Below are positions 3,264-8,315 of a stretch of 61,031 nt of DNA, piece by piece; positions within the stretch are counted from its first letter, which is position 1, and each line of letters begins with the position of its first letter. Below the pieces are notes generated by a model. The model was not told where the DNA came from. It saw only the letters and a list, made by a program, of their open reading frames with translations, and made no database searches. This DNA comes from a virus (taxonomy: Duplodnaviria; Heunggongvirae; Uroviricota; Caudoviricetes): the IMG/VR virus record IMGVR_UViG_3300018411_000017; one strand, written 5' to 3'. The position numbers and the translations under genes are program-made.

Positions 3264-3815
3264 ATGCTTATTTCTAATTATTCAACTATTCGTCCCAATG
3301 AACTTGGGACAAGAACCGTCGAGGATTTTTCTAAGTTTTTAGGTGCAAAACCACATCGTTTAGGTGTTGTTGCAAGACAAAATCCCGATTTAACAACTTC
3401 GTTTTTAACGGACGCATTGATGAACATTTATGACGTACCGAGTAAAAACAAATTTCAATCAGTTAACTCATTCGTGATTGAATGGGAAATTGAGCAAAGC
3501 TTTATTAAACGTATTGAATTTGCGTCTACTCCTACCTCTTCTGGTAAGTATGGTGCTCCGGTATCGTTTGTTTTTAAAGAAGCTTATTTTGGTAAATATG
3601 ATACTTTCAGAATCGAGAAAACTCGCCAGCAAGGTATTATAGTTTCCAATCCAAATAGAGTTAGAGATAATGCCTTTGAATATCAGGTTCAGCTTGTTAC
3701 AAACAACGCTGACGAAGAGTTCGACCTGACAGGATGTGCCACTGGTGATAAAGTTCGCTGGATTGGTAATGCCCATCCTGAAATGAGTGAGGAAGGCAAT
3801 GTCAAAAATCAGAGT
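3264..3815 (+). CDS. Major capsid protein, exon 1 (184 codons; spliced product about 468 aa)
   Basis: crAss-type MCP N-terminus (TRTVEDFSKFLGAKPHRLG...IEWEIE...RIEF). Ends at U3815 (..CAGAGT), which pairs U.G with the intron guide GCTC at 3827-3830. Confidence 0.9.
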
Positions 3816-5158
3816 AAAGAAATATTGCTCCTTGCAGCTTAAAGCTGTTCGAAAAAGTTTTTTAATTGCTGGAAAATCCTATAAGTTTTATGAATTTATT
3901 TATAGGACAATCAGCAGCCAAGCTCAAGAGTGTACAAACATTTTAATGTAGTACTTGAGAAGGTTCAACGACTATCCCGGAAGGGAGTACATCTTTAAAT
4001 AGATGGAAAAGGAAACTAACTTAAAAAAGTATAAAATGAAATACATTGTTTATCAGACAATCAATTTAGTAAATAACAATATCTATATCGGAGTTCATGG
4101 GTGTGAAAACCCTGATATTTTTGATGGATATATAGGATGTGGAGTCGTAATAACAAATCCATCTTCTTATAACAAGCCTCAAACAACATTCCAATATGCA
4201 GTAAAAAAATATGGTACTTCAAATTTTAGAAGAACAATATTAAACATATTTGACACGTCAGAAGAAGCATATTCTCTTGAAAAGCAAATAGTAAACAAAG
4301 CTTTTATTAAAAGAAAAGATGTTTATAATGAAAAAGAGGGAGGGCTCTGTGGAAGTTCTTATAGTGTTAAAATAAATCAGTTTAATAAAAAAGGTGAATT
4401 CTTAAAAGAATGGAATTCCATAATTGAAGCTGCGGACTTTTATAATATAAGTCATACTGCTATACATAATGCTTATAAATATAAAAGTTGTTGTAAAAAT
4501 TTCTTTTGGTCTAAAGAGAAAAGTATTAATATTGATGAATACACATATAAAACTGACTCGAATCCAGTTATATGTTATCAATATAATTTAAGTGGGAAAT
4601 TAGTTAATACTTATAATTCTATAATAGAAGCTTCAAAAGAGAATAACACAACTGCTCCTCAAATTAGAAGAGCTATTTATGGTGGATATAGAGTTGGCGA
4701 TTATTACTATTCTTCTAAAATATATGAAAACTATACTGGTCAATCAAAAGTTTCATTAAAAAAACAACCAATATATATTTATACATTAAATGGAGAATTT
4801 GTTACTAAATTGAAAAATTCAGAAGAAATATATAATTTCTTCAATATTAAATCAACAGGAGTTGTTACTACTGCAATAAGGAATAAAAAACCTTATAAAG
4901 AATATCAGATTTCTTTAGAAAAACTAGATTCTATGCCTGAAGTAATAAATAAAAGAAACATACCAAAGAAAGTTGGTCGATACTCTTTAACTGGAGATTT
5001 ATTAGAAATGTTTGATAGTGCTACTAAAGCATGTGAAAAATATGGTAAAGTAGTTCAAAAAGCACTTAAAGGCCAACAAAAACAATGTAAAGGATTTATA
5101 TTTAAGTATATAAGTTAATGATATAGTCTACTCCTATTAGTAATAATAGGTATTATGG
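3816..5158 (+). mobile_element. Group I intron (IA2-like) 1 in MCP gene, 1343 nt
   Basis: P AATTGCTGGAAA, Q AATCAGCAGC, R GTTCAACGACTA, S ATGATATAGTCT. P7 is GACTA 3970-3974 / TAGTC 5124-5128; P7.1 TCCC-GGAA-GGGA; P8 TAACTTA/TAAGTTA; P9 CCTATTA-GTAA-TAATAGG. The guide ATATTGCTC (3822-3830) pairs GAGT|AATAT. Ends in G5158; the splice is in frame (QS|NMEIHR). Confidence 0.92.
4036..5118 (+). CDS. Intron-encoded GIY-YIG (Seg-like) homing endonuclease with NUMOD1-like repeats
   Basis: MKYIVYQTINLVNNNIYIGVH..FDGYIGCG N-terminus and repeated QF/Y..G.F..W.SI.EA units; lies in the P8 loop. ATG 4036 is preferred over 4003, which overlaps core RNA and lacks a counterpart in HEG2. Confidence 0.85.
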   Translation: MKYIVYQTINLVNNNIYIGVHGCENPDIFDGYIGCGVVITNPSSYNKPQTTFQYAVKKYGTSNFRRTILNIFDTSEEAYSLEKQIVNKAFIKRKDVYNEKEGGLCGSSYSVKINQFNKKGEFLKEWNSIIEAADFYNISHTAIHNAYKYKSCCKNFFWSKEKSINIDEYTYKTDSNPVICYQYNLSGKLVNTYNSIIEASKENNTTAPQIRRAIYGGYRVGDYYYSSKIYENYTGQSKVSLKKQPIYIYTLNGEFVTKLKNSEEIYNFFNIKSTGVVTTAIRNKKPYKEYQISLEKLDSMPEVINKRNIPKKVGRYSLTGDLLEMFDSATKACEKYGKVVQKALKGQQKQCKGFIFKYIS

Positions 5159-5419
5159 AATATGGAAATTCATAGAAATTATATCACTCGTCATCGTGCT
5201 GATATAGAATTTTCTTCTGATTTCGAAGCTCTTGAAGATACTTATATCTCTCTTGGAAAAAATGATTCAGACACTGGTACAGTTTATAAAATGAACAAAA
5301 AAGAACAGCAAGTTCTTGAATCGTTTATGATTGGTAGAAACCAGATGAATCTTATGTCGAAATGCAATGTAGACAAGAATGGAAAAGCCAGGAACTACGA
5401 TCCTGCAACAAATAGACCT
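5159..5419 (+). CDS. Major capsid protein, exon 2 (87 codons)
   Basis: NMEIHRNYITRHRADIEFS...DPATNRP, in frame with exon 1 after splicing. Ends at U5419 (GACCT), pairing with guide GGGTC 5453-5457. Confidence 0.88.
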
Positions 5420-6819
5420 AGAAAATTTAAGTTGTCAGCAGCTTAATACAATGGGTCGCATAACAGTGATGTTATGAACAATAGATTTCTCTGAATTGCT
5501 GGGAACTCTTAAGTGAAAACATAAGACAATCAGCAGCGAAGCATTGGAAAAGACAAGCTAATAAGTAGTCCCAATGAACGTTCAACGACTAGCCGATAGG
5601 CGTACACCCGAGTGGGTGGAAGTGGAGAATAACTTATAAAATATTTAAAAAAAATGAAATATATTGTATATTTGACCACCAATAAAATAAACAATAAGAT
5701 TTATATTGGTGTCCATAAAACTGAAATTGTTGAATTTGATGATTATTTGGGATGTGGTGCTTTTGCTAATTCTCCAAAAACATACAATAAAGGCAAAACT
5801 CCTTTTCATTCAGCAATATTAAAATACGGTCCAAAAAACTTTTACAGAACAACATTAAAAGAGTTTGATAATAAAAGTGATGCTTTATCTCTAGAAAGAG
5901 AGCTTGTTAATGAAGACTTTATTAAAAGAGTAGATACATATAATATCTGCTTGGGAGGAGGCGACCCACCATTATTATCAAAAAAAATATATCAATATGA
6001 TATTAATGGAAATTTTATAAAAAAATGGGATTCCATAAAGTCTATAACAACTTTTTACAACTGTAATAAAGATAGAATTACAATGGTTATTCATGATAGA
6101 AGGTCTTTCAAAAATTGCTTTTGGAGTTATGAACATTTAGATAACATTGACTTGTCTAATTATAAAATAAGCTTTCATGAAGGGACTATAAAACAATTTT
6201 CTAAATATGGAGTTTTACTTAATGAATTTAATTCATTAGAAGATATTTCTATTAAATTGGATGTTGATAAAAGAAGAGTGTCTAATGCTATTTGCGACGG
6301 AAGACTTTTGATGGACTGTTTTTTTACAAAAAATGATGATATAGATATTTTAATGGCTAATAAAAATAATAGGCAATTAAACTTGAAGAAAAAAATTTAT
6401 AGATACTCAATAGATGGAATATTTGAAAAAGAATATGATACTATGGAAAGTGCTATGAAGGAATTAAAAATAAAATTTAGTTTAATGAGCAGGTCATTAA
6501 AAAATAATGGTATAATAAAAGGGTATAGATGGAGCTTTGATAAAAAAGAAAAATTAGATGTCAAATCTAAAAACATTAAAGCAACCCCAATAGACCAATA
6601 TTCAATAAATGGTGAATTTGTAAAATCATGGAATACAATGTATGAATGTAGGAAGGAGTTTCCGTCTCTTTTAAAAGTATTGAAAGGGGATATTAAACAA
6701 ACAAAGGGATTCGTTTTTAAATATAAAGAAGTTAAAGATATAGTCTAAACTTATATGAAAATATAAGAAGTTTTATAAAAACTGATTAGCAGGTAACGTG
6801 GCTAATTTAATATTAATTA
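5420..6819 (+). mobile_element. Group I intron (IA2-like) 2 in MCP gene, 1400 nt, apparently ending in A
   Basis: P AATTGCTGGGAA, Q AATCAGCAGC, R GTTCAACGACTA, S AAGATATAGTCT. P2 CATAACA-GTGA-TGTTATG; P7 5587-5591 / 6741-6745; P7.1 GCC-GATA-GGC; P7.2 CACCC-GAGT-GGGTG; P9 CTTATAT-GAAA-ATATAAG. The guide ACAATGGGTC pairs GACCT|ATTGT. The 3' boundary is inferred from P10 and reading frame. Confidence 0.85.
5654..6748 (+). CDS. Intron-encoded GIY-YIG (Seg-like) homing endonuclease with NUMOD1-like repeats
   Basis: MKYIVYLTTNKINNKIYIGVH..FDDYLGCG; repeated IYQY..NGNFIKKWDSI-type units; ORF ends within the S/P7 element (KDIV*). Confidence 0.85.
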   Translation: MKYIVYLTTNKINNKIYIGVHKTEIVEFDDYLGCGAFANSPKTYNKGKTPFHSAILKYGPKNFYRTTLKEFDNKSDALSLERELVNEDFIKRVDTYNICLGGGDPPLLSKKIYQYDINGNFIKKWDSIKSITTFYNCNKDRITMVIHDRRSFKNCFWSYEHLDNIDLSNYKISFHEGTIKQFSKYGVLLNEFNSLEDISIKLDVDKRRVSNAICDGRLLMDCFFTKNDDIDILMANKNNRQLNLKKKIYRYSIDGIFEKEYDTMESAMKELKIKFSLMSRSLKNNGIIKGYRWSFDKKEKLDVKSKNIKATPIDQYSINGEFVKSWNTMYECRKEFPSLLKVLKGDIKQTKGFVFKYKEVKDIV

Positions 6820-7413
6820 ATTGTTATTGGGGATGGAGTTATCCCTCAATTGGAAAGATTTGCTGACAAATATGCTTATTCAAAAATGTCTACAGATATT
6901 TTTGATACAATGCTTTCTTCTATGAGACAAAAATCTAAGAAATCAATGGGTAACAAATACGTATTTGTTGCTAACGAAATGCTTTGGGATGATATCCAAA
7001 AAGCTCTTAGAGATTACCTCAAGAATTGGAAGACAAACGGAACTACTTTCTTCTCTAAAGCAGGTGGTAAAGATATTGAAATTGGAGGCTTCTTTGAAAC
7101 TTATAACATGGGTGGAAACCAGTTAACCTTTATGGTTGATAAATCTCTGTCTTTGGAGTATGATCAAAAACCTTATGGCTTCTGTCTTGACCTTACCGCT
7201 GATTTAGCATCAGGAAAACCAGCGATGGCTTCTTATGCTTTAGCAGGAAAAGAATACAAACAGCACATCCTTCGTGGTGTTGGTTCTAGTTCTGTAGAAG
7301 TTAGCTCTGTTGTAGCTGCTTCTAGAATTATAAATATTGGATATTCTTCTGTGTGTGTATTCTCACCGCATAAGAGTTATATAATTGAAGGAAACAAACC
7401 AAATAAATATTAA
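6820..7413 (+). CDS. Major capsid protein, exon 3 (197 codons plus stop)
   Basis: IVIGDGVIPQLERFADKYAYSK...YVFVANEMLWDDIQ...GGFFETY is a crAss MCP-like C-terminus. An in-frame TAA at 6814-6816 limits how far upstream the exon can start. Confidence 0.85.
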   Translation: MVIGDGVIPQLERFADKYAYSKMSTDIFDTMLSSMRQKSKKSMGNKYVFVANEMLWDDIQKALRDYLKNWKTNGTTFFSKAGGKDIEIGGFFETYNMGGNQLTFMVDKSLSLEYDQKPYGFCLDLTADLASGKPAMASYALAGKEYKQHILRGVGSSSVEVSSVVAASRIINIGYSSVCVFSPHKSYIIEGNKPNKY

Positions 7414-7425
7414 GATAACAATATG

Positions 7426-7455
7426 AGATGGGGAGCATAAGCTCCTCATCTTTAC
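7426..7455 (+). terminator. Intrinsic terminator after MCP
   Basis: AGATGGGGAGC-ATAA-GCTCCTCATCT stem followed by a short T run. Confidence 0.7.
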
Positions 7456-7475
7456 TATAAAAAAGGAAATGTTTT

Positions 7476-8315
7476 ATGACTAATGATGGTACAATTATTC
7501 GATTAAGAAACGTATACAAATTACCAAAATGCAAAATGGAGCCCTCTATCGATCCAAAAACAGGTAGACTGCCAGAACATATTATTGAATTAAAACCTGA
7601 TGGAAGCACATTTAGGGAGGCTGAGACAGAAAAAAAAGCAAAACAAATGAATCTTATGCCATTGATGGCAAACATGAATGTAGATCTCTATGATGGGATT
7701 ACGTTTGATTTAGAAGATATTTATGACCGATCCGTATGGGAAGCTATCAAGCATTCTCCATTAATCGCAGAAGAAAGATATTCTAAAGATTCAACTGGTA
7801 GATATGTGATTGATGGTGACGCAAGCCGTTATGGTTATGCAGACTGGTATATAGAAAGACCAGACAGAGAAGCTCAATCATATAATTCTAAAGTTCAACT
7901 TGTTCATAATGCTCAAGCTTATTTATTTAATGATTCTAAAGATAATCTTTATATCAAATCAAGATTGCTTGGATCAAGAATGGATGGATTGTCATATGAC
8001 GAAGTGTTAAATTGGCTATTAGAACAAGCTTCTAAAAAACCGGAACGCATTATTGATTTGTATACTGGAGCTGATACAAGATTAAAGATTATTCTTGTTA
8101 CAGCTATAGATAGAGGCGTAATTCGTAATAGCAATGGTGCTTATACGTATGGTAATATGAATATAGGGATGACTGAGGAATCTGTTATACTTTGGATGAA
8201 ACAAGCTGTTAATGCTGAATATGTTAAATCTATTGAGTTTGAAACGTTTCCAGATGCTACTACTAGTTTAGAAAGTAAAAAAGATACGCCTGCAAAGGCT
8301 ACTGTTAAAAAATAA
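7476..8315 (+). CDS. Conserved crAss-like protein downstream of MCP, function unknown
   Basis: 279 aa ORF in the usual post-MCP position; no catalytic motif recognised. Confidence 0.6.
   Translation: MTNDGTIIRLRNVYKLPKCKMEPSIDPKTGRLPEHIIELKPDGSTFREAETEKKAKQMNLMPLMANMNVDLYDGITFDLEDIYDRSVWEAIKHSPLIAEERYSKDSTGRYVIDGDASRYGYADWYIERPDREAQSYNSKVQLVHNAQAYLFNDSKDNLYIKSRLLGSRMDGLSYDEVLNWLLEQASKKPERIIDLYTGADTRLKIILVTAIDRGVIRNSNGAYTYGNMNIGMTEESVILWMKQAVNAEYVKSIEFETFPDATTSLESKKDTPAKATVKK

Follow-up and report, generated by a model that had tools for sequence, protein, structure and literature searches.

A putative omega-A group I intron interrupting a crAss-like phage major capsid gene, within an intron family ending in G, A or C

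Group I introns almost universally terminate in a guanosine (ωG), which is taught as a requirement for the second splicing step. Introns of subgroup IA2 are marked by P7.1 and P7.2 helices between P7 and P3 and by a P9-P9.2 tail; the T4 td intron, which encodes the GIY-YIG endonuclease I-TevI, is a phage representative, and such introns end in G. The second splicing step is reportedly slower in the Coxiella burnetii intron Cbu.L1917. This intron, located in the 23S rRNA gene, is reported to lack ωG (Raghavan et al. 2007, J Bacteriol 189:6572). The hexacoral mitochondrial intron ND5-717 ends in ωA within an essential protein gene; its exons are joined exactly, and it ligates less efficiently than an ωG intron of the same genome (PMC8146996, PMC6545197), with more than 70% of the precursor left unspliced in vivo (PMC6545197). 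Group I introns are also present in the capsid genes of Delta and Zeta crAss-like phages (Yutin et al. 2021, PMC7886860), in an account whose passages covered here are silent on terminal bases and splice junctions. A search of part of the literature found no account of non-G ends in phage introns.

The window considered here is a stretch of 61,031 nucleotides of viral DNA (IMGVR_UViG_3300018411_000017), and all features described lie on its + strand. It contains a gene for the major capsid protein of a crAss-like phage, identified by a match to the Pfam family Crass_capsid, which is interrupted by two group I introns; this capsid region was met in freshwater and wastewater sequencing runs. Exon 1 (3264-3815), which agrees with natural intronless alleles of 468 amino acids (P0291 and P0293), is followed by intron 1 (3816-5158), an ordinary ωG intron ending in G5158 that carries a GIY-YIG-like/NUMOD1 ORF (4003-5118) and serves as an internal control. 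Alleles without intron 1 exist. Exon 2 (5159-5419) closes with the codons R-P and the base U5419, and exon 3 (6820-7413) opens with I-V-I-G-D-G. Between them lies intron 2 (5420-6819), which is IA2-like, 1400 nt in length and has A as its 3′ terminal base. Neither intron was detected when the whole window was scanned with Rfam at gathering thresholds; a local scan recovered intron 2 through two matches to RF00028, of 52.5 bits at 5434-5682 and 28.6 bits at 6663-6767 (gathering score 50). Intron 2 is absent from the annotated phage records examined, and searches of viral contigs with exon 3 and with P9.2 gave no matches. In a close relative (L534:688-4200) the corresponding gene contains at least six group I introns and has very short exons.

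The helices of intron 2 from P1 to P9.2 can be paired straight from the sequence, and these pairings together with Rfam give a group I core of P3, P4, P6, P7 and P8 with P, Q, R and S elements. The 5′ portion of the catalytic core (5487-5629) comprises P3, in a register read directly (5487-5492 with 5624-5629), P4, P5, P6, the 5′ strand of P7 (5587-5591), P7.1 and P7.2. The last two lie between P7 and P3, and a tail of P9, P9.1 and P9.2 hairpins (6750-6807) is retained with base changes in L534, L529 and L533; by these helices, as read from the sequence, the intron is IA2-like. The 3′ strand of P7 (6741-6746) supplies C6745, which pairs with G5587 to form a canonical guanosine site with bulged C5586 and an A-U pair below. 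Within the internal guide (5448-5457), for which compensatory changes occur in relatives, 5453-5457 pair with exon 2 to form P1 and 5448-5452 pair with 6820-6824 of exon 3 to form P10 (five of five pairs). The splice-site pair of P1 is U5419.G5453, the usual U.G, and L531 preserves P1 through a compensatory double change. The P1 loop folds into a hairpin of 8 bp (5427-5446), similar to one in sister introns, that contains the stop (5444-5446) ending read-through from exon 2. The P9.0 pairing proposed in the first-pass annotation stands, with its register refined: judged by 49 ωG controls, the helix is better placed between the second and third bases after P7 and ω-1 and ω-2, which here corresponds to 6748-6749 with 6817-6818. 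Covariation in relatives is seen for both the 5-bp P10 and the 2-bp P9.0. A putative homing endonuclease ORF of 364 amino acids (5654-6748) occupies the P8 loop; its GIY-YIG match (19.1 bits) falls below the cut-off of 22.6 bits and its NUMOD1 match (26.5 bits) lies above the cut-off. The frame reads on through J8/7 and P7 to a stop at 6746-6748 that overlaps P9.0. Ribosomes reading the ORF would be expected to interfere with core folding, and the folded core with translation.

An assembly error at the terminal base of intron 2 (6819) was a concern of the first-pass annotation. A6819 is no such error, since it recurs in ten other assemblies (L506-510, L525-528 and L530, although some at 100% identity may trace back to the sample that gave the window, or to its sampling campaign) and in two independently assembled runs. 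A freshwater contig (run X3) spanning 6206-7600 has no differences to the window, a wastewater contig (run X15) with an ORF-less form of the intron spans 6729-7001 and differs solely at 6918, and one of the ten assemblies, L526, has flanks 96% identical to the window. Intron 2 thus departs from the near-universal ωG and, combining a terminal A with an unchanged G pocket, is filed among the ωA exceptions and not as a canonical group I member.

The 3′ splice site can be placed by the protein. Joining U5419 to A6820 gives a product 99% identical to P0291 and P0293, with four to five substitutions and no indel. If the U.G pair of the 5′ site is kept, each G-ending site from P7 to 6857 introduces a stop, shifts the frame or removes residues in frame: in-frame stops at 6808 and 6814 bar in-frame 3′ sites upstream, and use of the nearest in-frame G, G6831, would delete I-V-I-G. 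Capsid position 276 is I, V or L in 48 of 49 full-length homologues and the first G of G-D-G is kept in 45 of them; no full-length homologue missing the four residues was found. A one-base slide of both ends of intron 2 keeps the protein and yields a terminal U or A, never G. Because no G-ending site or slide gives an intact capsid, an intact protein from this allele would need ligation at A6819. The view of the first-pass annotation that the intron ends in ωA, with its 3′ site before 6820, is well supported, and the positions it gave for the guide (5448-5457), P10, A6819, the stop at 6814 and G6831 all hold, as does its reading of the P7 guanosine-binding pair as normal. It did not notice a cryptic G at 6823, whose P9.0 is intact and as good as that of A6819, and which would be a frame-shifting competitor leading to a stop after 33 codons. 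When the correct 3′ site is aligned, G6823 is base-paired within P10. No spliced exon 2/3 junction was found in the contigs of four runs, and contigs cannot show absence; contigs joined across both introns carry the codons of intronless alleles (compare L511 and L519). A product spliced at 5419/6820 would read AGA for the Arg ahead of Pro and ATT for the Ile behind it, unlike all intronless DNA alleles encountered, which have CGT-CCT or AGA-GCT. Among strains, 29 exon differences are synonymous and 1 is non-synonymous, in a count that mixes intron-bearing and intronless strains.

Pattern and protein searches recovered 15 intron lineages at the exact site of intron 2. Nine of these end in G (L254, L256, L275, L306, L319, L341, L008, L291 and L535), five in A (the window intron, L534, the five contigs L520-522/529/531 referred to as type B, L269, and a gut group of about eleven contigs around L086), and L533 alone in C. 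L269 is a single contig in which a homopolymer error is conceivable, yet type B has the same ending in five contigs. Identity to intron 2 reaches only 75-79% in its closest non-G relatives, so the non-G end is an old and stable trait. Type B, 75% identical, is a second intron found at this site within one and the same phage population, and its ORF may be full, truncated or absent. The C-ending sister intron (L533:2570-2640) has a G one base upstream. Elsewhere in capsid genes, 38 distinct introns received a G call and two gave ambiguous ends; this ωG control set was picked by its G calls and is curated, not an unbiased estimate of frequency. Introns of L128 and L342 (residue 271) and L351 (residue 322) that P10 would place as ωA were not counted, as a G three bases off fits nearly equally. 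A 5′ exon of L259, around capsid residue 180, apparently has A and not U as its last base, opposite the guide G.

A single origin of all non-G ends was rejected (AU p = 2e-6 to 3e-4), a result that rests solely on the L086 group having G-ending introns as its sister group. A clade of the four closest non-G introns received 96/96 support, which was lost upon adding L535, and is not rejected (p = 0.40). The deeper tree is poorly resolved. A G-ending intron close to the ωA L086 group lies two bases downstream in L107, L170, L272, L279, L296 and L301, a possible case of intron sliding. Many intronless alleles (among L513 and the cluster members P0287-P0313) have Ala or Val for Pro at the insertion site (N-R-A-I-V-I-G); these replacements would break P1 and may resist homing.

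The comparison within the family bears on how a non-G end could be accommodated. An altered P7 pocket was considered and rejected: the pocket, its flanks and the R element do not differ between introns with and without ωG, so there is no sign of altered nucleoside specificity. P10 covaries with exon 3, pairing being retained in four guide/exon-3 variants. P9.0 in the called register has its first pair in all six non-G lineages and both pairs in five of six, with A-U, C-G and U-A all in use, and it is weakened or lost in type B, L533, L269 and L086 once their ends are shifted onto an adjacent G; the enrichment of both pairs against ωG controls is not significant (5/6 versus 21/49, p = 0.09). 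A long second guide segment is present in most introns at this site, where the median duplex is -11.7 kcal/mol versus -4.7 kcal/mol elsewhere; the comparison is limited by the relatedness of the sequences and by the greater chance pairing of longer loops. In L254, L256, L269, L275, L306, L319, L341 and L086 the extra segment makes P10 bipartite, the second guide in the P1 loop pairing with the G-D codons of exon 3. An unusually strong P10 as a means of rescue holds for the family and not for the copy in intron 2 (-6.8 kcal/mol), which is without a long second segment and whose loop folds into the hairpin instead. By strengthening P10, the second segment may have eased the loss of G in the family, although it is absent from intron 2.

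It is likely, in our judgement, that ligation at A6819 proceeds independently of protein, with the site set by P10 and P9.0 and with reduced efficiency, in a group IA2-like mobile intron family whose need for ωG is relaxed. The first step would be ordinary: free guanosine would bind the P7 pocket, which is seen to be unchanged, and cut after U5419. In the second step the 3′ site would be placed by pairing on both sides of A6819, by P10 on the exon side and by P9.0 on the intron side, so that the exons could be joined exactly though A suits the G pocket poorly. P10 and P9.0 are the helices known to define 3′ splice sites (PMC6155759). The probable cost, by analogy with known systems, would be slower or less complete ligation, with some leak to the cryptic G6823 that the phage would tolerate. 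Such a leak is to be expected from an IStron library, whose alternative 3′ sites were all G-ending and located within 10 bases of the usual one (PMC13521648). The ωA would then represent a relaxed constraint in a selfish element, neither a changed pocket nor a demonstrated regulator.

A bolder reading, which we regard as unlikely, is that the family self-splices efficiently and accurately with an A, C or G end through a structural solution so far undescribed, ignoring a cryptic G four bases away; parts of such a solution could be, for example, the P1-loop hairpin and the P9.1/P9.2 tail common to the closest non-G members. If so, this would be a naturally occurring ribozyme that ligates exons without recognising ωG.

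The first-pass annotation suggested that the intron could need a protein cofactor. Exon ligation at ωA might depend on a host chaperone, a phage protein, or the endonuclease acting as a maturase in trans, and many group I introns do require proteins in vivo (PMC3984707); the weakness of P10 in the intron 2 copy and the competing cryptic G would be in keeping with such help. However, the core is canonical and the non-G end is kept in ORF-less copies of both type A, the kind of intron in the window (L526 and run X15), and type B (L529), so the intron's own protein in cis is not needed. A host or trans cofactor is possible, and ligation that strictly requires one is rather improbable. The same annotation proposed that ωA throttles capsid synthesis. 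A throttle selected to delay or limit the capsid would suit an essential late gene and the persistence of non-G ends in several lineages, and intron retention has been proposed as regulatory for ND5-717 (PMC6545197). Against this, intron-free alleles are common in the same phage, this phage or close ones also harbour ωG introns, one sister intron ends in C (L533) and no regulatory input is seen, so the proposal finds no support and we give it very little credence. Slower splicing of intron 2 is plausible, and the intron-free alleles and the C-ending sister point to tolerated relaxation, not regulation.

Slighter still is the chance that a nearby G is used with a shifted 5′ site, or G6831 with four residues deleted. 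A one-base slide does preserve the protein in type B, L533 and L269 (G at -1) and in the L086 group (G at +1), and the related ωG intron of the L107 group lies two bases downstream; intron 2 and L534, however, reach no G by a protein-preserving slide, slides lose the U.G pair and break P9.0, and the four residues are present in every full-length homologue. Least probable is an allele dead for splicing and kept by homing and by complementation from co-infecting phages, for which intronless alleles are available in the same samples, or an A that is a sequencing error: the error is excluded by the many assemblies, ORF-less copies persist though unable to home by themselves, L526 retains an identical exon 3 protein despite its diverged flanks, and the helices carry compensatory changes.

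Where annotation rules insist on a final G, exon boundaries of crAss-like capsid genes will be set wrongly. The short ORF-less alleles (about 316 nt) can be transcribed directly, making the share of ωG in the rate and accuracy of ligation, and its substitution by P10 and P9.0, measurable.

Compared with described systems, intron 2 shares with introns of the T4 td type the P7.1/P7.2 helices, the P9-P9.2 tail, a GIY-YIG-like ORF and a stop just inside the 5′ end; unlike these it ends in A, and its ORF lies in P8 and overlaps P7. The capsid introns of Delta and Zeta crAss-like phages lie in the same host gene family, with several endonuclease-bearing introns per gene (PMC7886860). Cbu.L1917 resembles intron 2 in being a natural group I intron without ωG and differs in its rRNA host gene, its subgroup (IB2) and its LAGLIDADG protein. 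The precedent for ωA is wider than the Coxiella case named by the first-pass annotation, as it extends to ND5-717 (PMC8146996, PMC6545197), which like intron 2 has a terminal A and an essential, protein-coding host gene. ND5-717 is an obligatory, vertically inherited intron of animal mitochondria that carries genes in P8, whereas intron 2, known from DNA, is an optional intron of a phage, carries an endonuclease-like ORF and has relatives ending in G, A or C at one site. Intron 2 is a rare but precedented ωA case and not, on present evidence, a new mechanism; the published exceptions to ωG are few and consist of single fixed lineages, whereas here a G/A/C series of related introns occupies one site in an essential phage gene.
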